From IMG/VR virus record IMGVR_UViG_2703718857_000002: 23,029 nt of DNA; one strand, given 5' to 3'. Shown here piece after piece: positions 1 through 20,599 of the stretch. Positions within the stretch are counted from its first letter, which is position 1; every line of letters begins with the position of its first letter. The notes below the pieces were generated by a model that was given only the letters and a program-made list of their open reading frames with translations, did not search any database and was not told the DNA's origin. Position numbers and translations under genes: made by a program. Source of the stretch: a virus. Lineage: Duplodnaviria > Heunggongvirae > Uroviricota > Caudoviricetes.

Positions 1-549
1 TCAGCTAGCTGGAAACTTTTTATACAGAGTTGAGAGCCCTACTCCATACGTTTTTGATACGCTTTGTCGTGATTCACCGGTTGCCATCCGCTCCCCCATT
101 TCCCGCCATTGCTCATCCGTGAACTTAGGCCTGCGACCACCAACTCGCCATTTTGCCCTGGCTACGGCCAGCCCTGCTAAGGTACGTTCGCTATTAAGAT
201 CAGATTCATATTGTGCTGCGGAAAGGATGTTACGAAAGTTATAGCGGCCGCTGGCTGTTTTGAGATCCACGCCATCGGTAATACTGCGGAAGTTGATACC
301 CTTTTCCTGTAACTGCTGGAACATCAACAGCGCATGCAGAACGTTGCGGCCTATCCTGTCCAGCTTCCAGACCACCAGTTCATCCCCCGGCTGCATAGTG
401 GCGATCAGCCGTTTTAGAACCGGCCGATTCGATTTCCTCCCGCTGGCATGCTCTTCAAAAATTTTCTCACAACCCGCTGACTTGAGCGCCGTTAGTTGCA
501 ATTCAGTGTCCTGGTGGTTTGTTGATACTCGGGCATAACCGTAAATCAT
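1..549 (-). CDS. Serine recombinase of the DNA-invertase (Hin/Gin/Cin/Pin) family, 182 aa
   Basis: Complete ORF: ATG at 549..547, stop TGA at 3..1. N-terminus MIYGYARVSTNHQD carries the catalytic-serine motif of small serine recombinases; C-terminal HTH (SVSKTYGVGLSTLYKKF). AGGAGAA Shine-Dalgarno lies within the upstream palindrome. Family assignment is from established knowledge of the family. Confidence 0.9.
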   Translation of the reverse strand: MIYGYARVSTNHQDTELQLTALKSAGCEKIFEEHASGRKSNRPVLKRLIATMQPGDELVVWKLDRIGRNVLHALLMFQQLQEKGINFRSITDGVDLKTASGRYNFRNILSAAQYESDLNSERTLAGLAVARAKWRVGGRRPKFTDEQWREMGERMATGESRQSVSKTYGVGLSTLYKKFPAS

Positions 550-1241: not shown

Positions 1242-1559
1242 CTAAACAACCGCATTGTCCTGGCGCACATCGCAGATAGTAAACGTCACGACGCCGATGA
1301 CAGTAACATCGTCCAGGGCTTCGCCCTCGATCGCTTCACCATCTTCAGTAATCAGTGACTTTCCTCTCAGCGTGGCAAGCTCCGTCCCGCCGCCGTGCTG
1401 TATAAGTAGTTGGCTACCCTGCTTTGGCTTCAGGGAGATATCCAGTACAACGTAACCACCAGATCGCTCGAAAACTAGCGTGTTTGGGCCGACATTGCAG
1501 ATCGAGTTAACAGACAACCTTTGCTCAACGTAGTCCGTCGCTGGTGAAGGGAATCCCAT
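1242..1559 (-). CDS. Hypothetical protein, 105 aa; distal gene of a LexA-box-controlled two-gene operon
   Basis: ATG at 1559..1557 overlaps the TAA of the upstream gene by 1 nt (TAATG); GGAGGG Shine-Dalgarno upstream. Translation MGFPSPATDYVEQRLSVNSICNV... with no family I can recognise. Confidence 0.55.
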   Translation of the reverse strand: MGFPSPATDYVEQRLSVNSICNVGPNTLVFERSGGYVVLDISLKPKQGSQLLIQHGGGTELATLRGKSLITEDGEAIEGEALDDVTVIGVVTFTICDVRQDNAVV

Positions 1560-1798
1560 TAGATCACCCTCCCCATGTTGGCCATCATCCACAAACGGTT
1601 TTCGCTATGGTCGGTGGTTTTGTCGACAAAGTACGTCTGCTCTCTAGATATCCACGCATTAGCCTCTGCGTCGGTAAAGTGCAGCCCACGCCGGCGCAGC
1701 GCTGACACAAAATCCTTTGTGTGCAGGTACTGGTAGCCTTTGGAGTTGCGCAATACCGACTCGCGGAAAGCCGCGGCGATGTCTGACTGTCGAAGCAT
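1559..1798 (-). CDS. Hypothetical protein, 79 aa; proximal gene of a LexA-box-controlled operon
   Basis: ATG at 1798..1796 preceded by GGAGGG at about -8; the GTG at 1819 used in the ORF track lies inside the LexA box and is less likely. Translation MLRQSDIAAAFRESVLRNSKGYQYLHTKDF...; no family recognised. Confidence 0.6.
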   Translation of the reverse strand: MLRQSDIAAAFRESVLRNSKGYQYLHTKDFVSALRRRGLHFTDAEANAWISREQTYFVDKTTDHSENRLWMMANMGRVI

Positions 1799-1816
1799 GA
1801 TCTGCCCTCCGATAAA

Positions 1817-1836
1817 CACTGTTTTTATATACAGTA
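1817..1836. promoter_or_regulatory. LexA (SOS) box CACTGTTTTTATATACAGTA
   Basis: CTGT-N8-ACAG with an AT-rich spacer; 17 of 20 positions match the enterobacterial consensus TACTGTATATATATACAGTA. Sits about 20 bp upstream of the 79-aa gene start, overlapping the likely -10 region. Confidence 0.7.
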
Positions 1837-1905
1837 GTTTTAAGTGAGCGGCAGATCAATGCTGGTTGTGGCTATCAATCCCTGCGTCAGTAGCAAACTA
1901 TTGTT

Positions 1906-4923: not shown

Positions 4924-5187
4924 ATGATTTTAATAAATAAATACACTCCTCCAACGCAGGAAGATTTAGCCAGACTGAAATCCGCAATAAACTACTCCGG
5001 AAACCAAATGGCAGGGCTCGCAGGTGTAGCCAGCGATAGCCAATGGCGGAAATACACTGGCGGAGAGAGCCCCAGGGTAATGTCAAGACACATACTGTTT
5101 TATATTGCAGCTCAGCTTGTTCTGTCTGATGAGCAACTTAACAATGTAATAAATAAAATGCGCGATATTGGCGCGGAGATAAAATAA
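4924..5187 (+). CDS. Small XRE-type helix-turn-helix protein, 87 aa; putative regulator of the downstream acyltransferase
   Basis: ATG at 4924 with AAGAG-type Shine-Dalgarno (the ORF track starts at GTG 4900). Segment ...GNQMAGLAGVASDSQWRKYTGGESPRVMSRHILFYIAAQL... fits an XRE-like HTH pattern. Its stop overlaps the acyltransferase ATG (TAATG). Confidence 0.55.
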   Translation: MILINKYTPPTQEDLARLKSAINYSGNQMAGLAGVASDSQWRKYTGGESPRVMSRHILFYIAAQLVLSDEQLNNVINKMRDIGAEIK

Positions 5188-6278
5188 TGCTTGGCCTAAT
5201 AAGGTTTTTTTTGGCATCGTGCGTCATTGCTTTTCACTTAACGGCTCGCATACCTGCACTTGGCAACTTTGCAGTGAATTGCTTCTATGTTATCAGTGGT
5301 TTTTTAATAACATACATTTTGCATGAAACATACAAGTTCAACTTCTCTATGTTTTGGAAAAATAGAATACTGAGGTTATTCCCGGCATATATATTTTTTC
5401 TCGTCATGGGCTTTCTTATTATAAAATTAATTCCATCCGCAAAGGAATTCCACTCAAACTGGACAGGCAATTTCTTACCTGGAGATTTATTAGGAAACCT
5501 CTTAATCTTCCCCTGGGCTTTCCTTTCTGATAATGCTGTAGCAAATCCATTCGGTGCCTTTTCATCCATTTATCACTTTGCTATTGATGGTAATAGATTC
5601 AGAATAGTCACATCATCATGGTCAGTGGGTGTTGAGATAACATGTTATTTTTTATTGTGGCTTTTCATAGCCCGAAATAAATTTACAGCCATTACGTCGA
5701 TTCTGCTTTCACTGCTTTATCATGCTTACGTATATGTAGTACACCATTCTTTTGATATGGCGTATTTCCCATTCCTTGCTGCAACACTTCCTTTTAGCAT
5801 GGGTTCTCTGGGTTATTTTGCCCATAGAAAGTTCAAAGCTATGTATCTTTCTCCACACAAAGCTTTTTTAATAACATTTATTTGCATCGGGATTTTTATT
5901 ACCAATTGGTATTTATATACAATTAATGCATTAGGTCAGTACAACATAATACTTTACTACACCAATAATGTAATAGCATTGTTTACAACCCTGGTATTAT
6001 TAAAAATAAAGACAAACATACATCTTGAGAAAATACTCAAGTGGTTTGGTGACCTGGCCTATCCAATTTTTCTTTGTCAATATTTTGGTGGATTTCTAGC
6101 ATGGCTTGCTATTGGTGGTGAAAATCGTGGCTTATCCATCTTTTTATTAGGCTACCCAATATCAATTGCACTTGGGATCGTTTGTGTAATATTAATAGAC
6201 AAGCCACTAATTAAAATTAGAGCAAAAATAAGGGCGGACGCTCAAAGCAAAAATAATCAGGAAAACTCTTCAAGGTAA
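5187..6278 (+). CDS. Acyltransferase family 3 (AT3) integral membrane protein, 363 aa; probable O-antigen/LPS O-acetyltransferase (Oac/OafA-like)
   Basis: N-terminal His in the first hydrophobic segment (...VIAFHLTARIPALG...) and the VNCFYVISGFLIT motif typical of AT3 acyltransferases; multiple hydrophobic segments throughout. Gene body is visibly AT-rich, roughly one-third G+C by eye. The LPS substrate is inferred from the prophage tail-fibre context. Confidence 0.8.
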   Translation: MLGLIRFFLASCVIAFHLTARIPALGNFAVNCFYVISGFLITYILHETYKFNFSMFWKNRILRLFPAYIFFLVMGFLIIKLIPSAKEFHSNWTGNFLPGDLLGNLLIFPWAFLSDNAVANPFGAFSSIYHFAIDGNRFRIVTSSWSVGVEITCYFLLWLFIARNKFTAITSILLSLLYHAYVYVVHHSFDMAYFPFLAATLPFSMGSLGYFAHRKFKAMYLSPHKAFLITFICIGIFITNWYLYTINALGQYNIILYYTNNVIALFTTLVLLKIKTNIHLEKILKWFGDLAYPIFLCQYFGGFLAWLAIGGENRGLSIFLLGYPISIALGIVCVILIDKPLIKIRAKIRADAQSKNNQENSSR

Positions 6279-7042
6279 ACTAAACCATTCGCTCCTTTTC
6301 CTGATGAATAGTTACCATTCCCCCCGGCACCACCTGAGCCGGGGAAACCGCCATCATCGCCAGAACTACCGAAGTGGCCATTGCCACCCGTTGATGAAAA
6401 TGCAGATCCTCCAGCCCCGCCAATAAAAGCATCAGAACCATAATACAGACCACCTTGAGATATTCCGCCAGTAATATTTAAAATGTTCCCGCCACTTCCG
6501 ATACCTCCAGCAGGAACTGTAGCCCCGCCACCACTCCCTCCAGTAGCTGAGATTAAACTCCCGAACCTTGTATCACCACCATTCCCACCTTTAGACGAGA
6601 CACCAGCAGCAACAGCACTGCCACCAGTACCTATCGTCACAGATATAGTTTCGTTATCAGAAATATTAAATAACCCTTCCGAAAATCCACCAGCACAACC
6701 TCCAGATGCGCCCACACTAACTGGAGCATTCTGGCCACCTCCCCCCGCTCCCCAAACTTTCACCCGCACTCTTTTCGTCCCTTTAGTTGGAGTGTAAGTC
6801 CCTGACTTAGTAAAGGTGACAATATTAAGCAGGCGACCGCCACCAATCGCTTTAAGAACCTGTGAATCATCATCAGGATCAAGCTCAAGCCCCGCGCCCT
6901 CAACAACGTTTACCAGCTCACGCTGAAAGGTATTCATCATCTCAGCATTAATTATTGTCGGTGAAATACCATTAGCGACATTACCATTAGTGTATTCACC
7001 ATTAGCATCAGCGGTGTCAGTTGTACTGCCAACTTTTCTCAT
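6257..7042 (-). CDS. Glycine-rich tail fibre protein, 261 aa
   Basis: ATG at 7042..7040 with AAGAAGG Shine-Dalgarno. Lies immediately downstream of the gp48-like gene, where Mu-type fibres sit. N-terminal region ...ISPTIINAEMMNTFQRELVNVVEGAGLELD... is followed by a GGxGG-rich low-complexity C-terminal half. Its 3' end overlaps the acyltransferase 3' end by 22 bp (convergent). Confidence 0.7.
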   Translation of the reverse strand: MRKVGSTTDTADANGEYTNGNVANGISPTIINAEMMNTFQRELVNVVEGAGLELDPDDDSQVLKAIGGGRLLNIVTFTKSGTYTPTKGTKRVRVKVWGAGGGGQNAPVSVGASGGCAGGFSEGLFNISDNETISVTIGTGGSAVAAGVSSKGGNGGDTRFGSLISATGGSGGGATVPAGGIGSGGNILNITGGISQGGLYYGSDAFIGGAGGSAFSSTGGNGHFGSSGDDGGFPGSGGAGGNGNYSSGKGANGLVYLEEFS

Positions 7043-7068
7043 ATAAACCTTCTTTTTAAATGTCTGAA

Positions 7069-7743
7069 TTAAACGTAACCAGAAGCGATATCAAATATTC
7101 TGGCAAACTCAGGCGTGACTTCGTAAACCCCCTCATCGTTAAAACCGAAATAGATATAGCCGAATTTGACCAGGGTGTATGAGGGGGCGAGGGCATTAAT
7201 CCGGCATTCAAGCTGACGATTACCCCAGGAACGTAATGGATCGCCACAATAACTCAGACCTGCACGGGCATAAGTTATCGTTGTGTCTTCCGCCTCTACC
7301 AGCCAGACAAATGGCCAGTCATCCCCATTTAGCCCGTCACCACATACCGATAAGCCAGCACGCGCCTGCCGGTATTCCTTAATCGAAATCGTATAACCCA
7401 TTGCTGCGGCAATACTGATGAAATAGCTCTTTGACTGCCCGCCGGTACTGATGAGTTTCGATACAATGGCAGACTGACGCTTCGCAATCGTATCCACTTC
7501 GCCAATCGAGCAATCATCAGGTAAGCCGAGTGTTTTTTCCCACTCGGTGAGCATAATCGTCGCAGTTTTTGGAAAGGCACCGCGCAGCAATGCAAGTGCG
7601 TCGTTATCACTACGCTGGAAACTGGCCGCAATGGCCCGCAGCACAGCAGCCTGAACAGCTTTTGGATCCCGTGTCCACGCTCGGCCGGTGGGGATAAGCG
7701 CCTGCAGTGCCTTCTGATAATCGTCTGTTGAGAAAAGGCTCAT
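7069..7743 (-). CDS. Baseplate protein, DUF2313 / Mu gp48-like (YmfQ-like), 224 aa
   Basis: N-terminus MSLFSTDDYQKALQALIPTGRAWTRDP...TEWEKTLGLPDDC matches the conserved start of Mu gp48-family proteins. ATGA overlap with the upstream J-like gene. Confidence 0.75.
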   Translation of the reverse strand: MSLFSTDDYQKALQALIPTGRAWTRDPKAVQAAVLRAIAASFQRSDNDALALLRGAFPKTATIMLTEWEKTLGLPDDCSIGEVDTIAKRQSAIVSKLISTGGQSKSYFISIAAAMGYTISIKEYRQARAGLSVCGDGLNGDDWPFVWLVEAEDTTITYARAGLSYCGDPLRSWGNRQLECRINALAPSYTLVKFGYIYFGFNDEGVYEVTPEFARIFDIASGYV

Positions 7744-8888
7744 GTGTAGTTCACCTCGCCACGAACAGCCAGCTCCCCAACTCCCGGCTCAATATTCGCA
7801 GAAGGCGACACAAGGATATAACCTGAAGTACCGGCAACATCCCCTATCGCGCGGTTGAGATCTGAAAGGTAAATTTTCCCTGTGCCGAGCGGGTTAGCAG
7901 ATTCAAACAATACCCCGTCAATCGCATCAGCAATGGCCGCAGTCGTTGCGCTGTCGGCATCAGATATCCCGCTTATTTCAAAATCGATAACGCGTTCGAT
8001 GGGAGAGCAGACATAGTTAAGGGAGGTAACCGGCGCAAGCGGATACATATAATCGGCAACTCTCCCCTGATCCCCGGTGGCTTTTACAGCCCCCCACTCT
8101 TCCAGTTGAGAGACACCGTCAGTTCCTGCAGGGAATCCATGATTGGTTTTATCATCGCCGTCGCACATGATGTAAATCACCACGGTACCCGGCCCCATCC
8201 CCCGGCGCCGTATCCATGCCCTGGTGATCCCCGACACGGATAAAGCCCAGCTTTTATAATCAGTGTCACTCCCGCCCTGCGGGGGATTCTGATACGCCAG
8301 CAGACCACGTAATCGGAAATCCTCTTCACTTTCAATGTTGGCGCCGCCGGTGGCGGGCTCAATCAGCGTAACCGAGCTGTCTATGCCGGGGGCATTAGCA
8401 TCCAGTGTAAGAATGGTGCCAGCATCGGCATTTCCGGAAGCGCCTCCTCCTGTCACATCGTCTGTGATATCCGGCAAAACCGCTGTTACAGCAACCGACG
8501 CACTGCCAGCAGTGTTTATCGTTATGGCATCATCGGTTGTGTACTGGTAACCATCATCACGGTTTAACACCGCCCCTTTTGACAGTGTTTTCCCCGGCGT
8601 TCCGGTAACGGTCGCCGCCGGAGAGCGTGCTGCCGTTGCGGCTTTTCGGTAAATCTGCTTTAGCGCCATCCATCCGGCAAGCCACTCATCGGTAGAGGTG
8701 AAAGGCGTGCTCTGACGGGCAATATAATCCAGGTAGGCGTAGTGCAGATGGGCCATGCCCGCATCCATATCAGCGAGCACCTTAAGGTTGCCAAACCGTA
8801 ACAGCGCGCCAACACTTTCAAGCTCTGCCTGCATAAACTGGCGATTCTCCTGCCGGAGCTCGCTCAGTGTTTTCCGCTTAAATGGCAT
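7740..8888 (-). CDS. Baseplate J-like protein (Mu gp47 / P2 gpJ family), 382 aa
   Basis: Size, position between the gp46-like and gp48-like genes, and overall sequence character fit the baseplate J family. Overlapping start/stop on both sides indicates a coupled operon. Confidence 0.75.
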   Translation of the reverse strand: MPFKRKTLSELRQENRQFMQAELESVGALLRFGNLKVLADMDAGMAHLHYAYLDYIARQSTPFTSTDEWLAGWMALKQIYRKAATAARSPAATVTGTPGKTLSKGAVLNRDDGYQYTTDDAITINTAGSASVAVTAVLPDITDDVTGGGASGNADAGTILTLDANAPGIDSSVTLIEPATGGANIESEEDFRLRGLLAYQNPPQGGSDTDYKSWALSVSGITRAWIRRRGMGPGTVVIYIMCDGDDKTNHGFPAGTDGVSQLEEWGAVKATGDQGRVADYMYPLAPVTSLNYVCSPIERVIDFEISGISDADSATTAAIADAIDGVLFESANPLGTGKIYLSDLNRAIGDVAGTSGYILVSPSANIEPGVGELAVRGEVNYT

Positions 8889-9327
8889 TATTCAGTTGCT
8901 CCCATAGCCAGAAGAATTTGAACTCCTGCCAGTCCCCCGCCGGCGGCAAATACCGGATGATGAGGTTCAGCCTATTCGGGAAAACAATCTCTGACTGAGC
9001 CTCTATCGCTGCTGCAATACCATCCGACTTCATCCAGGCCAGAGCCTCTTCGGCATAATCTTCAGCTCTCATCGCCACTTCGCGCGTCAGTTTTTCACGC
9101 CGCAGTAGCCACAGCCTTGAGCCAATATTCCGGTCGTTGTCCAGATCCCCCCACCAGCCGCGGCGGTCAGTTCCTTCATAATCATCATCAGCGCGCGCCA
9201 GTCCGTCAGTAAACAAACTGATAATTATGGCCGTGTGCATATCATTCTCAGATGTCAGTACGCCGTTACCGGTTTGCCAGTCAGCATGAATGGCATCCAC
9301 ATCCCAGAATGAGGAAATATCACTCAT
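8878..9327 (-). CDS. Baseplate protein, Mu gp46-like (GP46 family), 149 aa
   Basis: Size and position between the spike and J-like genes; 4-bp overlap with the spike gene. Family call by synteny plus pattern. Confidence 0.65.
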   Translation of the reverse strand: MSDISSFWDVDAIHADWQTGNGVLTSENDMHTAIIISLFTDGLARADDDYEGTDRRGWWGDLDNDRNIGSRLWLLRREKLTREVAMRAEDYAEEALAWMKSDGIAAAIEAQSEIVFPNRLNLIIRYLPPAGDWQEFKFFWLWEQLNNAI

Positions 9328-9905
9328 ACCTGACTCTCTGTTTTTTCGCTTATGATCGTGCTATCGCCGGACTGAACTTTTTTAACGTCATGGTCATGAT
9401 CGTTGTGAGCATCCCGCAGCGCTTTGAGCGTTGAATTGTTCGTCTCGCAGTTATCGATGATGTCACCCGTCACCAGGAGTTTGGGGGTAACCAGCTTTAC
9501 CTGTTCCGTTGCCGTCGCGGTGATGTTTCTGGCATTATTGATCTCTACATCTTTGCCTTTCGCATCAATGAAAATTCCCTCCTCGGTCAGATGAATATTC
9601 ATCCCCTGCTGGTTATAGACCACGGTTTCGCCTGGCTTAAGCCCGGTATACCGGAAGCTTTGATGGTTAGAGGCAATGACGACAGGACTGGAGCGGTCCC
9701 CGCCGAGAAAGGCAATAAGCACATCCGATCCCGCCGGTAACCCCGATGAAAAACCAAAATCAGAGAGCCGTGGGGCGCTGGCCACTTCCAGCGGAGTCTG
9801 GTACTGGATTTCCTGCACAACCCCGCTATCTTTCTGCGTGGTAATACGGCCAATGCCCAGCATGCCGGCGATGCGCGTGGCCGATTTCTTTAAATTTTGA
9901 TTCAT
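9324..9905 (-). CDS. Baseplate central spike / assembly protein V (Mu gp45 / P2 gpV-like), 193 aa
   Basis: Size, synteny, and a C-terminal His-rich motif HNDHDHD (nt 9387..9407) of the kind that coordinates metal at the tip of contractile-tail spikes. Confidence 0.7.
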   Translation of the reverse strand: MNQNLKKSATRIAGMLGIGRITTQKDSGVVQEIQYQTPLEVASAPRLSDFGFSSGLPAGSDVLIAFLGGDRSSPVVIASNHQSFRYTGLKPGETVVYNQQGMNIHLTEEGIFIDAKGKDVEINNARNITATATEQVKLVTPKLLVTGDIIDNCETNNSTLKALRDAHNDHDHDVKKVQSGDSTIISEKTESQV

Positions 9906-10777
9906 TGGTTTAGTCCGGGTATTTGCTGGTAGAAAGCATAAGGCTGGACAGCGAAAGCCTCCGGGGGCATCAGATAAAGGCGCGCATGGGTGCCGTCACT
10001 GTCTCTGATATAAGTCACCTCTGCGATAAGCAATTCGGTGTCAGGCAGCTGCAGACTCGGGATGTTGACCGGGATAAGCGTATTCGGCTCCCATAATTTC
10101 CCGGATTTATCGCGCCAGGAATCAATCGTCACCGTTAACTGACGGGAACGGCCGTATCGGCGGTTCATCTCCCAGTCAATCGCTCGCTGAGCCTGTTGTG
10201 AAGCCATCAGTGTACTTTCAACAATAATGATCCGTTTTCGGTAACGCATACTGGCCGCCTCAGGATCGCGGGCCGTCGCCAGCGTCACCGAATCATAAGC
10301 CGTATCTGGCGAGAATCCTGCAATCGGCGAAATGCTCATCGATACGCCGACGTAATCAGAAAAGCGGTCAGCCATCGAACGGCGGTAATAAGCCTGTTCG
10401 ATATTTACCCCTTCTGCGATACCGCTGGCCGCGCGCTTTGTCCCCACCCGGGTCAGAAATAAGTTACCGTCAGGCTGATCGTAATAAAGCAATGCCGACC
10501 AGCGGGAGACACGATCAAGTATTTCCTGTGGCGATTCCCCCCAGTTCAGGGAAAATTGCGGAACTTTCACCAGATCATCAACGTCTGTACTTACGCCAAT
10601 GTTGTAATGGGATGCGAGGCGGGAGGCTATATCAAGCGCATTACTGTTATTGATGACGTTATTTGGCCATTCAGCAGAGCAATCAACGAGATCTGCGCAC
10701 TTACTGCGGCCTGAGGCTCTGACTTCATGGCGCGAACGGGAAATAGCAGGCGACCAGTCATCAACATACCCCGTCAC
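9902..10777 (-). pseudogene. 5'-truncated baseplate hub gene (Mu gp44 / P2 gpD family), 291 codons retained
   Basis: Frame opens at a GTG at 10777 that overlaps the portal stop codon in a different frame. C-terminal region ...LLIAEVTYIRDSDGTHARLYLMPPEAF resembles the conserved end of gpD-family proteins. Full-length homologues are about 380 aa (from memory), implying loss of roughly 90 N-terminal residues. Confidence 0.5.
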
Positions 10778-11931
10778 TACCAGGTACCGGATGAGAAATT
10801 ACGCAATACTGCAGACTCGAAAACCTCAAAGTTGCTGTAAGGGCGGGCAGCGTTGACCGTTGTTATTCTCTCCCCTGGATAAAGGATCGGCATACGGGCG
10901 CCATTCTGCAGCGTCAAACGGCGATCATTATGAAACTCTGCACGACCATCCTGGTATGCTCCCAATCCCTCTTCGAAGTTTTCCCCCAGCGCGGACTGGA
11001 TCATTTCGGGATCGTATGGAGACTCAATATACGCGGCGAAGATAGCATTCAGAATTGCTGCTTCCAGCTCGCTCTGGTCGTACTTCACCAGCATCTTCAG
11101 ACGTTGCACTACTGGAGTCAGAATGCCATTCCCCCGATGCTGAGCTCCACGCTCATGGTCAAAGTCGTGCACAACGTGCGGGCGCCCCCATGCGGTTTCG
11201 CGCGGGATTCGTCGCCATGTCATTGTTTTGGCGCCACTCCACCAGTCACCGATATGTGCTTCACGTATGTGATAAGCCACAGGTGCGCCGTCAGCATCAA
11301 TTTCAACGCCGCCGCGGATATTCGGCATATCAAAATTCTGCTGCGGGTTACTGAGTCTGTCGGGATCAACAACCTGCACCGTCGTGGCATAACGCCCCTT
11401 ACCTGGTCCAAGGCGATCGGTGCGATACTGAAGCACCATCAGGGCATCGCCATCAATCAGCTTGTGGCGAAAGGCCAGACGCAACATTTGTGGAACGGTT
11501 AGCTTGCGCTCAACGTCACAATAACGGCCTGTGTCGTATGCCCAGGTTCTCCAGTGGGAAGCGAGTGCTTTTCCGTACTCTTCCGCCCATACTGCGTCAA
11601 AACTTTTATTACCTGTCATCATCCGTAATACACGATAGTCAGGCTTCATGATCGGACGGAAATTGGCGCCGACCGCATTATCAAGCAGGCGAGTTATGGC
11701 ACCATTGGCCCATCCATCATTTCGGACCAGATCCCGCGCACGGGAAACTATACGGTCACGGTAGATATTAATTTCGTTATCCGGTGACCATAGTGCGGGC
11801 TGCCAGTTCGCCAGTTGATCGCTGAAGGAATCCGCGGCGTCATATGGCACCCGGCTACCGCCCGTCAACATGCTGGGTTTTGGTGCCTGATAAGGTCTCC
11901 CGTCAGGACCAAGGATTTGCACTTTATTCAT
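10777..11931 (-). pseudogene. 3'-truncated portal gene (lambda gpB family), 384 codons retained
   Basis: N-terminus MNKVQILGPDGRPY, the VERKLT motif and ...AILNAIFAAYIES... parallel lambda gpB; the ORF stops at ...NFEVFESAVLRNFSSGTW, where lambda-family portals continue for about 140 more residues (from memory). Start overlaps the gpW-like stop by 1 nt. Confidence 0.65.
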
Positions 11932-12194
11932 CAGAATCTGAACCTCACTGGCTTCCGTGGCCGGGCGACAATTCCCAGTTGCGCCTGCAGCAACTGAATC
12001 AGCGCCAGCAGGTCGGCGAGAGAGCTTTGCTGATAGGAGACAGAGCGCGTCCCATCACCCTGCGTATAGGAGAATGAGACGCCACGGCTGCCGGTAGTCA
12101 GGTCGATATAAGCCTGCTGCGCTTTCTGCAGAGCGTCTCTGAGCTGCTCATCAGTCATCCCACCAGCAAGTAAGCTCGTGTTTCGGTTAAACAT
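11931..12194 (-). CDS. Head-tail joining protein, lambda gpW-like, 87 aa
   Basis: Small ORF between terminase large subunit and portal, the lambda Nu1-A-W-B order. Translation ...LRDALQKAQQAYIDLTTGSRGVSFSYTQGDGTRSVSY... resembles gpW. Confidence 0.7.
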   Translation of the reverse strand: MFNRNTSLLAGGMTDEQLRDALQKAQQAYIDLTTGSRGVSFSYTQGDGTRSVSYQQSSLADLLALIQLLQAQLGIVARPRKPVRFRF

Positions 12195-12202
12195 GGTTTT
12201 CC

Positions 12203-14335
12203 TTATTGCGGCAGGAGTTTAGAAATGTTCTTACGCTTAACAGGAGCCATAGCCTCATCCACGATGGCACCCGGTAATTCGTAATTGATTTTTTCTTCTG
12301 GCTCGGCTGGCGCCGGCAGGAACTTATCGGGATCGGCCTGAAGGTTAGCGGCCCGAACATTGAGTTTTAATCCCATATGTTTCAGCCCACACAACGCGGC
12401 ATAGCTGTAAACGAGGCAGTCGAGTGCTTCGTTCGCCCGTCCGGGGATAGGCTCCCAGACACTGAATCGCTGACCGGCCACCACTTTATAAACCAGTCGC
12501 TCGGCCAGCAGCTGGTTGAAATATCCGAGGTCACGATCATCCGGGAAGTGCATATAGCCCGCACCGGCAGTACCTAAAGCTGGCGGTTCAAGATGCAGAC
12601 GACCACGGACAACATCTTTCGCAGAGTTCACGCCAAGTATAATTGGCCTGAAGCTGGCTTTACTTTTCGATGTCGGTCGCTTGGTTGGCCAGACGGGGTT
12701 GCGTTTCCCACCCTGCGCAGATTCGCCCTTGATAGCCCAGACGCGGCGCCCAAGGCGATCTTTGCAGAACTCATAAACCTTTTGCGTGTGGTGACCGCCG
12801 GAGTCCATACATGCAGCCAGAATATTCAGCCCTCGCCCGTCGCCGCGTCGCCATATCTGTTTCAGGTACGCATCGAGGCGCTTCCAGGGTTCCTCAGTCT
12901 CCAGATCGCCATAAATGACGTCATGCGCAACTGACCACGATTCCTCGTCCCGCCCCCAGCCAGTGATCGTGATTTCGAATCGGTCATCCTGGGTATCGAC
13001 GCCCGCAGTTAACAATGCCACGCCATCAGGAACGACGGCCGGGAAGACTTCACGGCGCGCCAGCAGGACATCAACCGGGAGCTGTTTCCCGTGGTTAGGC
13101 CGGTGCGGCAACCCCATCTGGGTGTTCCACCAGGCCTGTTCCTTATCCGGATCCCCTTTCGCATCGAGGTATTTCTTTGCAATGTCCGATGGCTTATCTT
13201 TTTGCCAGGGACTGAAGAGTTTTGACGCCTGGTACCCGGCGTGGTGATTATCCAGCGCCTCGGCCCCGCAGTCCGGGCAAATCGCCCGGTATACGGCATG
13301 CCGTTCCGACTCTGACCAGCGCCAGACGGCATCAACACTGCCCTCGTCTCCTTCATGCCATTTCTGGTCGTATTCCATTAATGGTGAATGGCGGGAACCA
13401 CAACATTCAAACGGTTTGGTCTGATGCCAGCGGATTGTCTGTAATGCCCGCAGACGCTCACCCTCTGACCAGCCAGCACCACAACATTCACAATGGATCA
13501 TGGCCGCTTTGGTCAGGTGCTTATCACCTTCTTTTGGCCATTGAACATGTTTGAAGAAATCAAGGAACTGTCGGTGCCCGCAATGGGGGCAAACTACAGA
13601 GGCCCGCCGCTGATCTGAATCTTCGTAACTGTCAGCAATCCGGCTTTCATCTTCGACCGTCGGCGAACAAGCCCGCACGGACAGCCAGTTAAGGCCAAAT
13701 GTGGCGGTTCGCTCTTCCGCCAGAGCGATGGGATCGCCCTCACGGGTAATCGGATATTTATCCACCTCATCTGCCAGCAGAACACGGATCGGACGGCGCG
13801 CAAGGTTATCTGGACTACCGGCGCCGGCCAGCGCCAGAAATCCGCCGGTGAAAGCTTTATACAGAATGGTTTCTTTTGAACTCTTCTGCTTTGAGTCACC
13901 TATGATGTTACGCAGAACTGGCGTTACCCTAACCAGCGGGCTGATGCGTTCTTTGGAAAACTGCTCAGCGGCCTCTTCCTTCGGCTGCAGGAGCAAAATC
14001 GGACATGGGTCGAGGTGCGCAAAATAACCAAACAGGTTTTCCAGCAGCGCGGTTTTCATTAACTGGGTACAGCACATCACGGTGATAATGTGGACGCCCG
14101 ATTCCGTCGCGGCCAGCATAGGACCGCGGGCAATTTCAACCGTTGATGTTTCCCAGTTCCCGGAGGTACTGCCAGCTTCTTTCGCCAGCTTCCGGTAGTC
14201 ATCGGCCCATTGCGGGACGCTGATCCGCGGCGGCGGTGTCCACCCTTTCCGGACACTCAGTTGAAGACGCTCAATCTTCCGCTGGGTTAAACTCTGGTTC
14301 TCCGAGGACTGAGATATGTTTGTGGACATGTTCAA
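12203..14335 (-). CDS. Terminase large subunit (lambda GpA family), 710 aa
   Basis: Long ORF with cysteine-rich zinc-finger-like cluster (CPHCGH...CECCGAGW...CPDCG) and overall resemblance to GpA-type terminases. Immediately downstream of and overlapping the Nu1-like gene. Confidence 0.85.
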   Translation of the reverse strand: MNMSTNISQSSENQSLTQRKIERLQLSVRKGWTPPPRISVPQWADDYRKLAKEAGSTSGNWETSTVEIARGPMLAATESGVHIITVMCCTQLMKTALLENLFGYFAHLDPCPILLLQPKEEAAEQFSKERISPLVRVTPVLRNIIGDSKQKSSKETILYKAFTGGFLALAGAGSPDNLARRPIRVLLADEVDKYPITREGDPIALAEERTATFGLNWLSVRACSPTVEDESRIADSYEDSDQRRASVVCPHCGHRQFLDFFKHVQWPKEGDKHLTKAAMIHCECCGAGWSEGERLRALQTIRWHQTKPFECCGSRHSPLMEYDQKWHEGDEGSVDAVWRWSESERHAVYRAICPDCGAEALDNHHAGYQASKLFSPWQKDKPSDIAKKYLDAKGDPDKEQAWWNTQMGLPHRPNHGKQLPVDVLLARREVFPAVVPDGVALLTAGVDTQDDRFEITITGWGRDEESWSVAHDVIYGDLETEEPWKRLDAYLKQIWRRGDGRGLNILAACMDSGGHHTQKVYEFCKDRLGRRVWAIKGESAQGGKRNPVWPTKRPTSKSKASFRPIILGVNSAKDVVRGRLHLEPPALGTAGAGYMHFPDDRDLGYFNQLLAERLVYKVVAGQRFSVWEPIPGRANEALDCLVYSYAALCGLKHMGLKLNVRAANLQADPDKFLPAPAEPEEKINYELPGAIVDEAMAPVKRKNISKLLPQ

Positions 14336-14834
14336 TCAGCACCTCTGTCATCCTGTCCGCCGGCACATTCAGATCGGCGGCTATCAGCGGTGCCACGCGT
14401 GAAGGCCAGTTCAGCCAGGCATCACGCTGCTGGCGAAAGGCGTTAAACAGAACCTCCTCGGCGATGGCCAATTCAATTGTCTGGCCGCTGTCTTTTTCAT
14501 ACTGGAGCTTTGCCTGCAGGGCCATGTAATTTTCACGGATCCGCGCGGCCTCTTCCCTGGAAAGGACTGCACCTTCTGTAAACATTATCTGGCGAACGGT
14601 TTCATCAATTTCATCGTCGCCATCATTCCGGGGTGCTGGGGCTTTTTTCTTCTTCGCGTTTGATGCCCGCGGATCTTTTCCATCACGGTTTTTCTTCAGC
14701 GCGGCATCGCTCGCCTCAACATCAATCAGGTCGCCATCCATGACGATAAACCGACCAGCCTTGATCCATCGGCCAATAGTCTTGCGATCGACGCCTGAAT
14801 GTTGCGCGTACTGACTCTGGTTCATCGTGGTCAT
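14271..14834 (-). CDS. Terminase small subunit (lambda Nu1-like), 187 aa
   Basis: N-terminal winged-HTH region MNQSQYAQHSGVDRKTIGRWIKAGRF resembles Nu1. Overlaps the 5' end of the large-subunit gene by 65 nt, as in lambda. Start could be ATG 14834 or the ATG 3 codons downstream. Confidence 0.8.
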   Translation of the reverse strand: MTTMNQSQYAQHSGVDRKTIGRWIKAGRFIVMDGDLIDVEASDAALKKNRDGKDPRASNAKKKKAPAPRNDGDDEIDETVRQIMFTEGAVLSREEAARIRENYMALQAKLQYEKDSGQTIELAIAEEVLFNAFRQQRDAWLNWPSRVAPLIAADLNVPADRMTEVLIEHVHKHISVLGEPEFNPAED

Positions 14835-14981
14835 GGGACATCACCTGGGACATTTTTGGGGTGGGACATTTACCTGGGACATTTTTTCAATGTCCCACAC
14901 GAATGTCCCACTGGAATAAATGGAATAATCCGTGCTGGCTCTGGCGTGGCTGGCGATCCCTTGGGGTGGGACATGGGACAC
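14834..14981. repeat. Array of TGGGACA(T/C) repeats (5 direct TGGGACAT plus 1 TGGGACAC, 2 inverted copies) immediately upstream of the terminase small-subunit gene; candidate cosB-like terminase-binding region
   Basis: TGGGACAT at 14834, 14846, 14862, 14875 and 14967; TGGGACAC at 14974; inverted ATGTCCCA at 14890 and 14903. Location matches where lambda-type phages carry Nu1 binding sites next to cos. Confidence 0.5.
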
Positions 14982-15071
14982 AAAATAAAAGTTTGTAGCT
15001 AGGAAAACACTGCGGCGCGCAATGCCCGTGCCTTACAAAAGGCTCAGGAAGGACCCAAAACCCCTGGGGGG

Positions 15072-15713
15072 CTATCTGGCCGAGCTGATCGCCTCAGCAA
15101 TCGCCTGGTGCAGCGCTGAGGGTAACAATGCGTTGGCCATGGTGTTTGCCCTGTCCATATAGCCGAGCGTTGGTTTGACTGGAAGCGAGTCTCCAAACCG
15201 AATGAGCAATTTTGGTGCAGGTTGCTTAATCTTGTCTCTGCGCGTGCCGTTCGGAGAACGTTTTGCCCGTTTCTTCCCTTTTTTGGTTTTCGGCTTTTTT
15301 CTCTGCCACACGGCATTCACGCCACCAACGTCACCAATAAATACGTTTGGCTTTGCTTTGAGCTGAGAGAGCTTATTACGCGGCAGGTTGCCGTATTTAT
15401 TAAGCTTTATGTCTTTCGGGTTAAGCAAAGCACTACCATTAAGCTTGTGCTCTCCGCCGAACTCGAAGGGTTCAAGGTAACCAGCAGCAGTATCACGAAC
15501 AAACACCTTCGCACGAAGGCTGTTTTTCCTGGCACCAACTGACCCAACCGATTTAACTGTAAAAGGTGTTGGATTATCCAGATTCCGCTCAAATGCTGTT
15601 TTTTGGGCCGCTTCTATCTGGCGAACCACTTTAGTCATAGCCTGGGCAGTCGCAAACGGTATTTGCTTCTGCAGCTGTCTTAACTGACTGGAAAGGTCCT
15701 TAAGCGTTGCCAT
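15072..15713 (-). CDS. Hypothetical basic protein, 213 aa
   Basis: ATG at 15713 with AGGTGG Shine-Dalgarno. Contains a strongly basic tract QRKKPKTKKGKKRAKRSPNGTRRDK. Located between the lysis cassette and cos; no family recognised. Confidence 0.55.
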   Translation of the reverse strand: MATLKDLSSQLRQLQKQIPFATAQAMTKVVRQIEAAQKTAFERNLDNPTPFTVKSVGSVGARKNSLRAKVFVRDTAAGYLEPFEFGGEHKLNGSALLNPKDIKLNKYGNLPRNKLSQLKAKPNVFIGDVGGVNAVWQRKKPKTKKGKKRAKRSPNGTRRDKIKQPAPKLLIRFGDSLPVKPTLGYMDRANTMANALLPSALHQAIAEAISSAR

Positions 15714-15762
15714 ATCATTGACCACCTAGTTACAGTAATTAAGATCAGTTTGCTCATAAAGT

Positions 15763-15791
15763 TGACAATAAAAAACCGCCCGTAGGCGGTT
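15763..15791 (-). terminator. Rho-independent terminator after the 134-aa moron
   Basis: Minus-strand hairpin AACCGCC-TACG-GGCGGTT followed by TTTTTATTG; overlaps the stop codon of the 134-aa gene. Confidence 0.7.
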
Positions 15792-16194
15792 AGTCGAACA
15801 TTTTATCAAGTTGCTTAGCTAGAGCTCGGTTAAACAGCTCCTTCGAAACTGTCATCAGCGTGCCCATACTGGCATCTTTGAATCCGGTTTTTAATGTTGC
15901 CCAAACCTCTTTGTTACGGAGAGCATCCAAGAAGTCATGCCCCATCGCGGTCAATCGCAAGGGCATTACAGCCCAGTGAGTCATTCCGTCTAAAGACTGA
16001 ATAGCACCAAAGCCGGGCTCCCCATCACTCCTGATAATCAGCCCTCTATCCTCAAGCAAACGCATATGAAACACAAATGTGTCAGTTTCACAATTGAACC
16101 CTAAATCCTTTAATCGAATAATATCGGTATCAGGTGAATCCGATGCCTCGAAAGCCTCGAGCAAACCTTTAAGGTATTCTTGATCTATTTGCAT
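15790..16194 (-). CDS. Hypothetical protein, 134 aa (moron between Rz and cos)
   Basis: ATG at 16194 with GGAGGGG Shine-Dalgarno and its own terminator. Translation MQIDQEYLKGLLEAFEASDSPDTDIIRLKDLGF...; no family recognised with confidence. Confidence 0.65.
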   Translation of the reverse strand: MQIDQEYLKGLLEAFEASDSPDTDIIRLKDLGFNCETDTFVFHMRLLEDRGLIIRSDGEPGFGAIQSLDGMTHWAVMPLRLTAMGHDFLDALRNKEVWATLKTGFKDASMGTLMTVSKELFNRALAKQLDKMFD

Positions 16195-16226
16195 AACCCC
16201 TCCGTATGTAAAAGGTTAATTTAACA

Positions 16227-16697
16227 TCAATTTAAGCACTGCTCTTTGATGTATTCCTGCAAATATCCAACCTGTTTCGTCACTGTGACGATTCGCTCTC
16301 TGAGGGTGAAATAATCCCGTTCAGCGGAGTCAGTAAGTCGGGGGCCGGTAACATCGCCCAGGCCGCCGGTGCTGGTCGTTCCGTTCGCGGGACAGTTTGC
16401 GTTGAGCTGCAGCCGCTTACGGCCAGCAATGACATCGCTATGCAGACGCTCAATGGTTTCTTTCGCATCAGCCAGTTCTCCGGTGTATTTGGCATCCAGT
16501 GCAGCGACATCACGCTGGCGGGTCTGCATGTCTTTAATGGTGGCGGTCGCCAGGAGGAGTTTCTCAGTGGCCTTATCGCGCTGGTCTCTGTAAGTGATGG
16601 CGTTGTCGCGGTAGTGGTTCACGAAGAAAGCCAGTGCGCCGATTAACGCCAGCACCAGCAACTGCAGCCAGTAACGCTTAACCAGTGCGCTAATCAT
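16227..16697 (-). CDS. Rz-type i-spanin, 156 aa
   Basis: N-terminal transmembrane segment ([17 protein letters not shown]) followed by a charged coiled-coil-like region; ATGA overlap with the lysozyme gene; contains the embedded Rz1 frame. Confidence 0.8.
16280..16468 (-). CDS. Rz1-type o-spanin lipoprotein, 62 aa, embedded in Rz in an alternative frame
   Basis: [22 protein letters not shown]... has a lipoprotein signal with lipobox cysteine, followed by a proline-rich mature region (...[19 protein letters not shown]). Start taken at the internal ATG at 16468. Confidence 0.75.
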
Positions 16698-17134
16698 GAC
16701 AGGAACAGAGCTCGCTCTGCCTCCCGCCGACGTGTCAGCCCATTCAGCACCTTCCCACCAGCTTTATTCCAGCGCAGGAACTCATCGGCTGCACCAGCGT
16801 AATCTCCGGCGTTGAGTTTTCGCAGGAGAGTCGATGTCGACAATGACCGCGCACCGAGGTTATACGTGAACGACACCAGGGCATCGAATTGCCCCTGAGT
16901 CAGGCCAACTTTAACCAGTCGTGACACGTCACTTTCGTAACTGACCATTCCTGTCTTCAGCAGGCGTTCTGCCGTTTCCTGCTTAATTGTCATCCCGGCA
17001 CGGATTGGTTTCCCGTCGACGGGCTGAGTCCAGCCATAACCGATCGTCCAAACGCCGACGCTGTCCTGATAGGCAGTGAGCTTGCAACCTTCGAACTCTT
17101 TGATCAGGGCAATGCCTTTATCACTGGTTTGCAT
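16694..17134 (-). CDS. Phage lysozyme (T4-type, GH24; P22 gp19-like), 146 aa
   Basis: Translation [34 protein letters not shown]... ending ...[12 protein letters not shown] closely parallels P22 lysozyme, including the catalytic Glu in EFEG. Confidence 0.9.
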
Positions 17135-17438
17135 TCTTCATCCCCGTCAAGCGTTCCCAGAAATAGGTCAGAGCCACTGAACCCATCGCCCCGCTAATGC
17201 CGGACGTGACAAGGATCATGTGAAAACTCAACCCACTCTCCACGCTTATCAACCCGCCAATCAAACCGGTAAAGCCGGAGACAGCGATCTGTGCCAGCGC
17301 GTTTATCCAGCTCCATGTCGCTTTATTCTGCTTTACGTCGATCAGGTAGCGAACTAAACCGCCCCAGCATGCAATGCCGAGCAGGACTAACCAGGACAGG
17401 CCTACAATTTTGTGGTCGTCATTCATACGCTTTGCCAT
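17121..17438 (-). CDS. Holin (lambda S-like class I), 105 aa
   Basis: ATG at 17438 with GGAGGTG Shine-Dalgarno; the ORF-track start at 17630 lacks an RBS and crosses the terminators. Three hydrophobic segments and a charged C-terminus; N-terminus MAKRM offers two in-frame starts separated by Lys-Arg. Confidence 0.8.
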   Translation of the reverse strand: MAKRMNDDHKIVGLSWLVLLGIACWGGLVRYLIDVKQNKATWSWINALAQIAVSGFTGLIGGLISVESGLSFHMILVTSGISGAMGSVALTYFWERLTGMKNANQ

Positions 17439-17510
17439 ATCACCTCCGAAGGAACGGGGTGCTGTTTGTGTAGAGTGGAAGGATGCCAGGAAACAACGAC
17501 CGGACATCGC

Positions 17511-17537
17511 AAATAAAAAAGCCAGCGACAGGCTGGC
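17511..17537 (-). terminator. Rho-independent terminator (proximal) in the Q-like/holin intergenic region
   Basis: Minus-strand hairpin GCCAGC-CTGTC-GCTGGC followed by TTTTTTATTTG. Confidence 0.55.
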
Positions 17538-17610
17538 AATGTGAGGGTAAGGCAATGTCGGCTCTCTGGCCGAAGGGTCCCAGGTAGTGGGTTCTGTGTG
17601 CTGCGTACCG

Positions 17611-17641
17611 CAAATAAAAAAGCCCCGCACGATGGCGAGGC
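17611..17641 (-). terminator. Rho-independent terminator (distal) in the Q-like/holin intergenic region
   Basis: Minus-strand hairpin GCCTCGC-CATCGT-GCGGGGC (one G-U pair) followed by TTTTTTATTTG; shares the flanking AAATAAAAAAGCC motif with the proximal terminator. Confidence 0.5.
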
Positions 17642-17707
17642 TCTTAATTCTTTGTCGACCTACGAAGCTATGGCGACGATATCAGATTTACATGAAATAT
17701 ATGCGTT

Positions 17708-18397
17708 TCAATCCAGTTTTGCAAGACTTGAGTCTAAATTTGTCGCCTTTTGTTGTGAACGTGATCGCGTAACCTGCAATAAAGCCCCGCTATCCAGTCG
17801 CAGGAAGATGCTGCGCATCTCAACCCAGCGGTCAGTAAAGGTCTCTGACCAGTTTTTTGGCGTTACGCCAACCAGCGACGCCAGCGCCTGATATTCGTAC
17901 GTCTCACGCCCTGCCAGCTCTGCTTTCACGTCCTGAGCCGCGAGCCAGACAAGCTTCTTCAGGCGCTCCATCGTTTTGCCGGCCACCTTCTTCGCGCCGA
18001 GCTGCTCCCGGAACTCTGCCCACGCCCATTGAGTGATTTCCACCTGATAGCACCAGCGCACGTTCTCGCTATAGTTCCATAGCAGCCACGCTTTCTGGTG
18101 TTCTTCGAGTGACATCAGTGCGCGGCGCCACGATGCGCTGGAGTATTCAACCGGCTGCACCAGGGGAATATGCGAACCCTTGGTATGCGACTGCTTGCCC
18201 GGTATTGGCGGGTTATCCAGCGTAATCATTTCCCCGGTCACTTCATCCAGCACTCGAGGCTTTTTACGTTTAAACGTTCCCGTATCGAACTGCGCGTTTT
18301 CAAGCCACGCCATCAACTGCCCTTTCGTCGCACCACTTAAATCGGCGGTGGCCACCATCAACTGCTGGCGCACGTATTCGAGAAATTGAGTATTCAT
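17708..18397 (-). CDS. Putative late-gene regulator (Q-like antiterminator by position), 229 aa
   Basis: Sits between NinG and the holin, where lambdoid Q lies, and is followed by terminators. Start taken at ATG 18397 (MNTQFLEYV...); the ORF track extends to 18490. No Q-specific motif such as a zinc finger is recognised, so the call rests on synteny. Confidence 0.4.
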   Translation of the reverse strand: MNTQFLEYVRQQLMVATADLSGATKGQLMAWLENAQFDTGTFKRKKPRVLDEVTGEMITLDNPPIPGKQSHTKGSHIPLVQPVEYSSASWRRALMSLEEHQKAWLLWNYSENVRWCYQVEITQWAWAEFREQLGAKKVAGKTMERLKKLVWLAAQDVKAELAGRETYEYQALASLVGVTPKNWSETFTDRWVEMRSIFLRLDSGALLQVTRSRSQQKATNLDSSLAKLD

Positions 18398-18527
18398 ACT
18401 GCACCGCCTATGGTTTTGATGTAGTTCTTCAGTATTCGGTAATCCGTCAGCACAGAGCCCGGAAAGTGGTATAAGCGCAATCGTTGCCAACGAACGCGGA
18501 GGTGATCGGCAAAATAGGATTCGAATG

Positions 18528-19139
18528 TCATGCTGCCTCCTGCTTTTTCAGCGCGCGCAGGTCAGCCAGCGCGGTCAGTCTGATTTCCTTCAGTTCTTCA
18601 ATAGTCCAACGATGCGGAGCGTTATTGTTCTCGAGCGCTAGTACCAGCTCTTCGCCATAACGTTCCACCAGCGCGGCTCGGTATGCTTCGATATTCCCGG
18701 ATTTGTAGACGTTGCAGACATCACACTGAAGATGGATGTTGAAGCGAGTGAAGCGCAGATGCCCAGCGGCTGCCGTAGTCCGATAATGGCCAGCATGCCA
18801 GGCGAACGCCGTTTTAGTTCCGCAGGAAATACAGCCCCGCCCCTCCGCCAACTCCGTCTCGCGGCAAATGTCATTTACGGCACGCTGCGTCAGGTCAATC
18901 CAGTGCTTCAGCGGCTTAACTGCAGCTTTACGCTGGCGCCAGGCTGCACGTTCTTTCTTCTCAGTGGCGCGCTGCTTGGCAGACTCTTTGCGTTGTGCAG
19001 CCTCCCGGGCTTTTCTGGTCTGCTCTTTCCCGACGGCGCTGGCGCACTCATAACCGCAGACGGTCTGCGTGTCGCGTACTGGATTGAACCACTGGCGGCA
19101 TTCCTTGTTGGCGCACTTCCGGCGCGGTAACTTAGCCAT
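18528..19139 (-). CDS. ninG: NinG (Rap) family protein, 203 aa
   Basis: MAKLPRRKCANKECRQWF...CISCGT...AGHYRTTAAAGHLRF...CDVCNVYKSGN... parallels lambda NinG, including the conserved Cys clusters. ATG at 19139 with GGGGGTG Shine-Dalgarno. Confidence 0.85.
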   Translation of the reverse strand: MAKLPRRKCANKECRQWFNPVRDTQTVCGYECASAVGKEQTRKAREAAQRKESAKQRATEKKERAAWRQRKAAVKPLKHWIDLTQRAVNDICRETELAEGRGCISCGTKTAFAWHAGHYRTTAAAGHLRFTRFNIHLQCDVCNVYKSGNIEAYRAALVERYGEELVLALENNNAPHRWTIEELKEIRLTALADLRALKKQEAA

Positions 19140-19141
19140 AA

Positions 19142-19947: not shown

Positions 19948-19981
19948 GGTTTCTCTCCGTGGCGCAGTAGGTTACGGTTGT

Positions 19982-20230: not shown

Positions 20231-20347
20231 ATTTATGTTCTCCCTTCGAGCGACTAACAGACGCGATTAAAGATTGTCGGCAGCAGCATCAGAGGGTTAC
20301 GCAAATTGCGGTATTCTGAAAAATGCGCGCCAGCCTTAAGCGCAATT

Positions 20348-20581: not shown

Positions 20582-20599
20582 AATGGCCCCCATTGCATG

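Follow-up and report, generated by a model that had tools for sequence, protein, structure and literature searches.

A UmuD'-like protein and a predicted winged-helix partner encoded together behind a umuDC-like LexA box in temperate enterobacterial phages

What would a temperate phage gain from two very short, translationally coupled genes that follow a host-type SOS (DNA damage response) operator, and which proteins do they encode? The question is raised by a cassette in a stretch of 23,029 nucleotides (nt) carrying a prophage of the Caudoviricetes (IMG/VR record IMGVR_UViG_2703718857_000002; hereafter the window), where a gene for 79 amino acids (aa; gene A) and one for 105 aa (gene B) lie directly behind a LexA box. 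We report comparative and structural data on this cassette and its relatives, and we consider it about an even chance that it represents an SOS-regulated orphan UmuD' moron of temperate enterobacterial phages, acting on host UmuC and/or activated RecA (RecA*). For the regulatory part of this reading our confidence is much higher than for the whole, and for the part that concerns DNA polymerase V (Pol V) it is lower.

All features of the cassette are read on the minus strand and are located in the window as follows:

1870..1879, minus strand: upstream element ATTGATAGCC, a direct repeat of the ATTGATC at the -35 position
1854..1859, minus strand: putative -35 hexamer TTGATC, 17 nt 5' of TACTGT
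1836..1817, minus strand: LexA (SOS) box TACTGTATATAAAAACAGTG, with a perfect CTGT-N8-ACAG
1836-1831, minus strand: putative -10 hexamer TACTGT, identical to the first six bases of the box
1805..1810, minus strand: Shine-Dalgarno sequence GGAGGG of gene A, read from the sequence and kept in the upstream alignment
1559..1798, minus strand: gene A, 79 aa, predicted winged-helix protein (phrog_3893), ATG at 1798
1567..1572, minus strand: Shine-Dalgarno sequence GGAGGG of gene B, within the 3' end of gene A
1242..1559, minus strand: gene B, 105 aa, UmuD'-like (HumD-related) protein with a predicted S24 fold, without cleavage site or catalytic dyad

The 79 codons of gene A are closed by a TAA at 1561-1559, which shares one base with the gene B start codon (ATG at 1559-1557; TAATG), and the 105 codons of B end at 1242; on the plus strand the box reads CACTGTTTTTATATACAGTA. 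A preliminary description, made from the letters of the window, had already given these elements (a near-consensus SOS box at 1817..1836, a 79-aa gene, TAATG coupling and a 105-aa gene, both genes with good Shine-Dalgarno sequences), and its coordinates and its account of the operon were correct. It had also placed the operon in the cargo region. This agrees with the position of the cassette directly downstream of the tail-fibre genes and adjoining the attachment end, the classic position of a moron.

The consensus LexA operator of enterobacteria is a 20-bp palindrome, TACTG(TA)5CAGTA, with a CTGT-N8-ACAG core. By hand count the box agrees with this consensus at 17 of 20 positions, and it is identical to the Escherichia coli umuDC operator at 19 of 20. 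The core motif occurs twice in the window (0.28 copies expected); the second copy (20600-20619) is found immediately 5' of a gene for a DinI homologue, and both copies therefore precede SOS-type genes. The resemblance to umuDC extends beyond the operator. Specifically, the 29 nt upstream of the box (ATTGATAGCC...ATTGATCTGC) match the E. coli K-12 umuDC promoter at 25 of 29 positions, a score reached by none of 2000 shuffled sequences, and the 17-nt spacing between TTGATC and TACTGT is the same as in the umuDC upstream region, the layout of which is likewise ATTGATAGCC...ATTGATCTGC, a 17-nt spacer and TACTGTATATAAAAACAGT. The elements ATTGATAGCC (1870-1879) and ATTGATCTGC (1851-1860) form a direct repeat, 20 nt apart, for which no known binding protein was found; ATTGATAGCC is common to the E. 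coli umuDC promoter and to Enterobacter, Cronobacter and IMG/VR loci, and the putative -35 hexamer is kept in the window, HK225, HK140, mEp390, LAU1 and phiES15. The two operons also share the one-base overlap of adjacent genes, whereas the cassette is without umuC and has an unrelated 79-aa gene as its first cistron.

Relatives of gene A are encoded on 348 IMG/VR contigs, and 85 loci were compared (the window, 80 IMG/VR contigs, HK225, Erwinia Midgardsormr38, Cronobacter phiES15 and Enterobacter LAU1). In 79 of these a CTG-N10-CAG is present 11-23 nt upstream of gene A, with CTGT and ACAG kept and the centre bases varying, and the most common box (31/85 loci) is the umuDC operator itself, identical at 20 of 20 positions. 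Relatives from Erwinia, Cronobacter, Enterobacter and Citrobacter keep the box too, with A proteins that share just 32-56% identity with that of the window (HK225 and LAU1, 53-56%; Midgardsormr38 and phiES15, 32-37%), and the same arrangement of box and promoter is found in HK140, mEp390 and a Citrobacter prophage. Judged from these alignments the promoter and operator are homologous to those of umuDC and were evidently inherited from a umuDC-type operon. With a conserved box and a umuDC-like upstream region, LexA control of the operon is thus strongly supported by the comparative evidence.

The gene pair is conserved as well. At 78 of the 85 loci gene B comes after gene A and shares the one-base overlap, and at four more it does so with a GTG start (TAGTG), so that the pair is present at 82 of 85; the remaining three are a contig end and the two recombinants HK225 and L084, where an invertase comes after A or is fused to it. 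Median pairwise ratios of nonsynonymous to synonymous substitutions (dN/dS) are 0.10 for A and 0.11 for B (68 intact loci). Since dN/dS is around 0.1 and the TAATG/TAGTG coupling is conserved, both genes are real and under purifying selection. The cassette is present in complete, isolated temperate phages (e.g. HK140, mEp390 and Klebsiella phages) and a match to it was found in 168 of 5426 complete E. coli genomes, while the homologues of B, mostly from Klebsiella, fall into 845 clusters at 90% identity, of which some hold over 3000 sequences. In mEp390 (NC_019721; L092) gene A, at 1150-1389, is unannotated in the GenBank record, which has instead a short open reading frame, gp25, on the opposite strand of this DNA; the A homologue there is intact, LexA-boxed and 54% identical to A of the window.

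These data bear on the explanation that the cassette is the remnant of a decaying umuD(C) operon without present function. A promoter derived from umuDC, the loss of the catalytic loop of B together with the absence of umuC, the remnant state of the window prophage itself and truncated HumD fragments beside attP in other phages would all agree with such a relic, but the low dN/dS of both genes across the 68 intact loci, B clusters with thousands of member sequences, and a length, coupling and operator that are kept from Escherichia to Erwinia and Cronobacter argue against it, and we regard it as extremely improbable.

Concerning the proteins, the preliminary description stated that neither resembled a recognisable family, and for B this has to be revised. 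Gene B belongs to PHROG 3469 ("UmuD-like", E = 1e-46), its product is 34% identical to HumD of phage P1 (BLASTP, E = 4e-13), its best NCBIfam model is HumD (NF051876, E = 1.4e-12), and the equivalent genes of mEp390 and HK140 are already annotated as "UmuD-like" in GenBank. The only significant sequence matches in the PDB are UmuD and UmuD', over residues 2-44 of B, and the N-terminal 40 residues align with UmuD 25-67. UmuD is cleaved between Cys24 and Gly25, and Gly25 is the first residue of the RecA-processed form, UmuD'. B starts exactly at the residue equivalent to Gly25 (MGFPSPATDYVEQR) and is without a pro-peptide, having no residues before Gly2; its N-terminus, M-GFPSPATDYVEQR, aligns with UmuD 25-37 and with UmuD' from residue 1, and contains the arm GFPSPAxDYVEQR. 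Structure prediction, suggested earlier for both proteins, gave a winged helix for A and for B the S24 (LexA/UmuD C-terminal) beta-barrel fold, with UmuD' (1UMU) as the best match.

For gene A the earlier view that it has no recognised function stands. Its only match is the uncharacterised phrog_3893 (E = 8.5e-40); no family was found in Pfam or NCBIfam, a PDB profile search gave nothing below E = 0.46 and no specific similarity to the LexA N-terminal domain was seen. A profile search of 1.84 billion representative proteins identified 206 representatives of the family, essentially all stand-alone proteins of approximately 79 aa. The AlphaFold2 (AF2) model, based on an alignment of 22 sequences, has a predicted local distance difference test (pLDDT) value of 89.5 and a predicted template modelling (pTM) score of 0.80; it has the canonical winged-helix topology H1-b1-H2-H3-b2-b3, with the wing between b2 and b3 (H1-b1-H2-H3-b2-wing-b3), and resembles many DNA-binding domains, among them PefI, PadR, MarR, ArsR and Fur. 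The sole significant match in BFVD is an unnamed 99-aa protein, 54% identical, which is probably the HK225 homologue. Two candidate relationships were rejected: A is not related to Lxr of P1 (BLASTP, E = 0.83), and it is not a member of the DinI family, as it gives no match to PF06183 and the winged-helix fold differs from that of DinI.

Gene A is also found in front of genuine HumD genes. In a Citrobacter arsenatis prophage it is followed by a true HumD that is 69% identical to the P1 protein and scores 220 bits on the HumD model, and in coliphage HK140 it likewise precedes a true HumD. HK140 and mEp390 have A proteins with 80% identity and B proteins with 29%; for the Cronobacter and Citrobacter loci the corresponding values are 59% and 22%. 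We interpret these identities as two types of B having been exchanged behind closely related A proteins. The N-terminal arm (GFPSPAxDYVExR) is the only strongly conserved segment common to both types and therefore, if A acts on B, the likely contact. Among the phages that carry HumD, P1 is without A, and N15 and phiKO2 are not among the A matches listed. Moreover, the Citrobacter arsenatis locus (L088) has two tandem LexA-like boxes, TACTGTGTATAATGCCAGTA and TACTGTATATATAAACAGTA, at 5942-5983, with the A-HumD pair on one side and a divergently transcribed MsgA/DinI-like gene on the other. A tblastn search with P1 HumD also gave matches to its C-terminal two-thirds only (approximately residues 45-128) in unannotated DNA of mEp234, Sf101 and several Stx-converting phages; in the records of the latter the match is close to the record end, and these fragments look like truncated humD remnants.

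A winged helix encoded next to an S24-type protein could suggest a split transcription factor, with A as the DNA-binding and B as the dimerisation module of a regulator of the LexA, CI or UmuDAb-DdrR kind, which would provide a second tier of SOS-dependent control with the ATTGAT repeats of its own and the umuDC promoters as possible targets. The fold of A is predicted with confidence and resembles many DNA-binding domains, A and B together (184 aa) are about the size of LexA, B starts where the hinge of a LexA-type protein would lie, and ATTGAT(A/C) direct repeats are conserved upstream of the box. However, H3 of A (DAEANAWISRE), the putative recognition helix, is not basic but acidic, the net charge of A by residue count is about +3 in the window and about 0 in Cronobacter, and the two B types are freely swapped behind nearly identical A proteins. 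Nor is there a natural A-B fusion: three long proteins that had appeared to be such fusions (P0339, P0390 and P0322) consist of A, an out-of-frame stretch and B, and are frameshift read-throughs. A precedent for the pairing is known from Acinetobacter, where UmuDAb, a UmuD homologue, works together with DdrR, a small lineage-specific co-regulator (PMC11332147). UmuDAb has its own N-terminal DNA-binding domain and self-cleaves, while B does neither, and ddrR is divergently transcribed whereas A and B would be co-translated. Taken together we find a split factor improbable.

We therefore return to the orphan UmuD' moron and to how it might work. In the lysogen the operon would be repressed by LexA, and DNA damage would switch it on through RecA*-stimulated self-cleavage of LexA, giving A and B together. 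B would be made already in its "activated" form and would be expected to dimerise through the S24 beta-barrel. P1 HumD is reportedly LexA-regulated and dimeric, and is said to bind UmuC and RecA filaments and to complement UmuD' in part. B may in the same way engage host UmuC and/or RecA* filaments and accelerate or modulate translesion synthesis of the Pol V type at the time when the prophage and its damaged DNA must replicate, so that an induced phage would gain immediate access to, or a handle on, translesion synthesis. A would be produced at a constant ratio to B, for which it most likely serves as a protein-binding partner or regulator, probably by way of the N-terminal arm of B.

Several observations weigh against this reading, some of them on the regulatory side. 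A generic sigma-70 promoter scan of 900-2100 called no promoter for the operon (a terminator scan of the same region gave none for it either); the promoter was missed because TACTGT, with 3 of 6 consensus positions, is a poor -10 match. On the TTGATC-17-TACTGT arrangement the -10 hexamer would lie inside the box, as in the umuDC upstream region, and the box would overlap a putative promoter, which the generic scan did not call. The box is absent from five loci (L020, L023, L040, L047 and L086), and from a sixth, L084, which is the A-invertase fusion and has a different upstream region. At the five loci an unrelated GC-rich segment, approximately 20-90 nt upstream of A, replaces the box and the -35 region, and the Shine-Dalgarno sequence and both genes are intact; here the cassette, if expressed at all, must be expressed from another promoter.

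Other such observations concern the proteins. On the HumD model B scores 47.7 bits, far from the curated cut-off of 120 bits (P1 HumD, 221.5 bits; Citrobacter partner of A, 220.2 bits), and no match to Pfam PF00717 (S24) was obtained at E<=1. When B is aligned with UmuD and HumD, its Ser60 loop is seen to be lost through a deletion of 12 residues, the position of Lys97 is occupied by Leu or Arg and varies among the homologues, neither the catalytic dyad of Peptidase S24 nor the cleavage site is found, and a conserved acidic motif specific to the subfamily, ITxDGEAIEGxALDxV, replaces the HumD segment; furthermore, the N-terminal arm is modelled with low confidence. Given the lost Ser60 loop, the unconserved Lys97 and the missing S24 match, B is therefore a non-catalytic, minimised member of the UmuD'/HumD lineage that falls outside the curated HumD equivalog and is no peptidase. 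Because B has diverged so strongly (HumD score below the cut-off, Ser60-loop deletion, acidic motif), it may or may not have retained UmuC binding. In addition, the evidence that links A to B consists of synteny and coupling, gene A also occurs without B in HK225 and L084, and none of the loci inspected has a umuC gene alongside the cassette.

A protein that keeps the fold and the N-terminal arm but has lost all catalytic residues might alternatively dampen the SOS response. As such a damper or decoy, non-cleavable B would occupy the groove of the RecA* filament, or form heterodimers, either with UmuD/UmuD' of the host or with repressors of the LexA/CI type through their S24 C-terminal domains, and would thereby hold back co-protease activity, mutagenesis by Pol V or the induction of prophages, following the logic of the LexA-controlled DinI/MsgA-like genes of phages. 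Such a gene is in fact divergent from A across the same box in HK140, mEp390, HK225 and the Citrobacter prophage, and the window prophage has a LexA-boxed dinI of its own elsewhere: a second near-consensus box, TACTGTATAAAAACACAGTA (minus strand, 20619-20600), is directly upstream of a DinI-family open reading frame at 20593-20348 (Pfam DinI, PF06183, 91.5 bits; likely true start MKVELTI at 20581), so the remnant prophage would hold two separate SOS-controlled morons, dinI and A-B. The divergent DinI/MsgA-like gene is however absent at all 80 of the IMG/VR loci, which are of the Klebsiella type; DinI as an obligate third member of the cassette was rejected for this reason, and the link is occasional, not defining. 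HumD, the closest characterised relative of B, promotes rather than inhibits mutagenesis. A damper is in our judgement possible although not likely.

The preliminary description had favoured a different SOS-triggered effector, be it an antirepressor, a toxin or an inhibitor of cell division, which might work in trans on further prophages, and had taken the lack of a recognisable repressor in the prophage as a hint. LexA-controlled prophage genes of similar size do include antirepressors (Tum of phage 186 and GfoA/GfhA of the Gifsy phages), which LexA represses directly and DNA damage turns on, and A is without an assigned function; a BFVD match of A to an "AntA/AntB antirepressor" (E = 0.07, TM 0.39) is far below significance. 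Unlike Tum, GfoA and GfhA, neither A nor B matches any antirepressor family searched, and B is of clear UmuD' lineage. No antirepressor, toxin or division-inhibitor family was found for A or B in Pfam, PHROGs or NCBIfam, and PADLOC gave 0 matches for both, so this assignment finds no support. Moreover, the cassette is carried by complete temperate phages of several types. As to the repressor, none is present in the window, as stated, but as a hint of an antirepressor its absence loses its force, being due to decay of the prophage, from which the immunity region has been deleted. We consider an effector of this kind very unlikely.

The window prophage, situated between yciI and kch, is a remnant and, as seen at 5187-23029, an internally deleted mosaic. 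It keeps genes for integrase, DUF4060, dinI, DUF1367, NinG, Q, holin, lysozyme and Rz, and also for large terminase, portal, baseplate J, tail fibres and an acyltransferase, while genes for capsid and tail tube are missing from it, as are the immunity and replication regions; the portal gene (10777-11931) and the large terminase gene (12203-14335) are followed directly by baseplate genes. Strain NZ_CM148361 has an identical cassette region in a prophage with a different deletion, where YdaS/HTH genes are retained. Inside the prophage, between gene B and an invertase gene, a 323-bp piece of E. coli chromosome (747-1069; the 3' end of yecD and the 5' end of yecE, approximately 96% identical to K-12) looks like the fossil attachment junction of a yecE-integrated phage, imported together with the cassette by recombination. 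The invertase (1-549, minus strand; a DNA invertase of the recombinase family) is 99% identical as a protein to that behind gene A in HK225, the attP of which is annotated in yciI, the same chromosomal site as that of the window prophage; in HK225 and L084 the invertase is behind, or fused to, gene A and B is deleted. Finally, an Acyl_transf_3 acyltransferase gene in the opposite orientation (5187-6278, plus strand), among the tail-fibre and baseplate genes, may be a moron that modifies surface polysaccharide.

Among characterised systems HumD of P1 (also gp26 of N15 and gp23 of phiKO2) is closest, being like B a LexA-regulated phage UmuD' homologue without umuC. As for the cassette, a LexA box is located just upstream of humD in the P1 annotation, and P1 HumD starts with MGFPSPA and is, like B, born in the "cleaved" UmuD' form. 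B differs from it in being 24 residues shorter, in lacking the Ser loop and the conserved Lys, and in its own acidic motif. P1 has humD as a single gene immediately after the box, with lxr in the divergent direction, whereas the cassette has the extra coupled gene A between the operator and the UmuD'-like gene; in HK140 and the Citrobacter prophage a true HumD takes the place of B behind gene A. Compared with UmuD, B is without the 24-residue pro-peptide, the Cys24-Gly25 site and Ser60/Lys97. Plasmid operons of the impCAB type also have a gene for a small protein (approximately 80 aa) followed by a UmuD-type gene under LexA control, and ImpC is DinI-like; gene A is not, and the cassette has no ImpB/UmuC gene. 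Phage DinI/MsgA-like genes, in turn, are neighbours of A in HK140, mEp390 and HK225.

No paper on the A-B gene pair was found in the literature searched. Phage-borne, LexA-controlled orphan UmuD' genes are already known (HumD), and B is labelled "UmuD-like" in databases; what is new is the conserved winged-helix partner, the minimised B subfamily and the demonstrable umuDC ancestry of the promoter. The benefit that phages draw from LexA-controlled UmuD' homologues has been unclear since P1 HumD, and the cassette adds to this a co-translated winged-helix partner that accompanies genuine HumD genes too. The minimised UmuD' scaffold has been reduced to its N-terminal arm and beta-barrel, and this points to the arm as the functional interface, and the promoter and operator taken from a umuDC-type operon provide a clear evolutionary link. 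We also put forward, as a bolder and rather doubtful suggestion, that A represents a new family of SOS-induced winged-helix partners that bind the universally conserved GFPSPAxDY arm and redirect a catalytically dead, minimised UmuD' scaffold beyond classical Pol V, with control of RecA* co-protease activity or prophage induction thresholds, or recruitment to another polymerase or DNA site, as possible tasks; were this true, a phage gene product that modifies SOS and mutagenesis would be present in a very large number of Klebsiella and E. coli lysogens. Should the cassette increase or decrease SOS mutagenesis or the induction of prophages, it would matter for the supply of mutations and the release of phage when clinically important lysogens are exposed to quinolone-type antibiotics.

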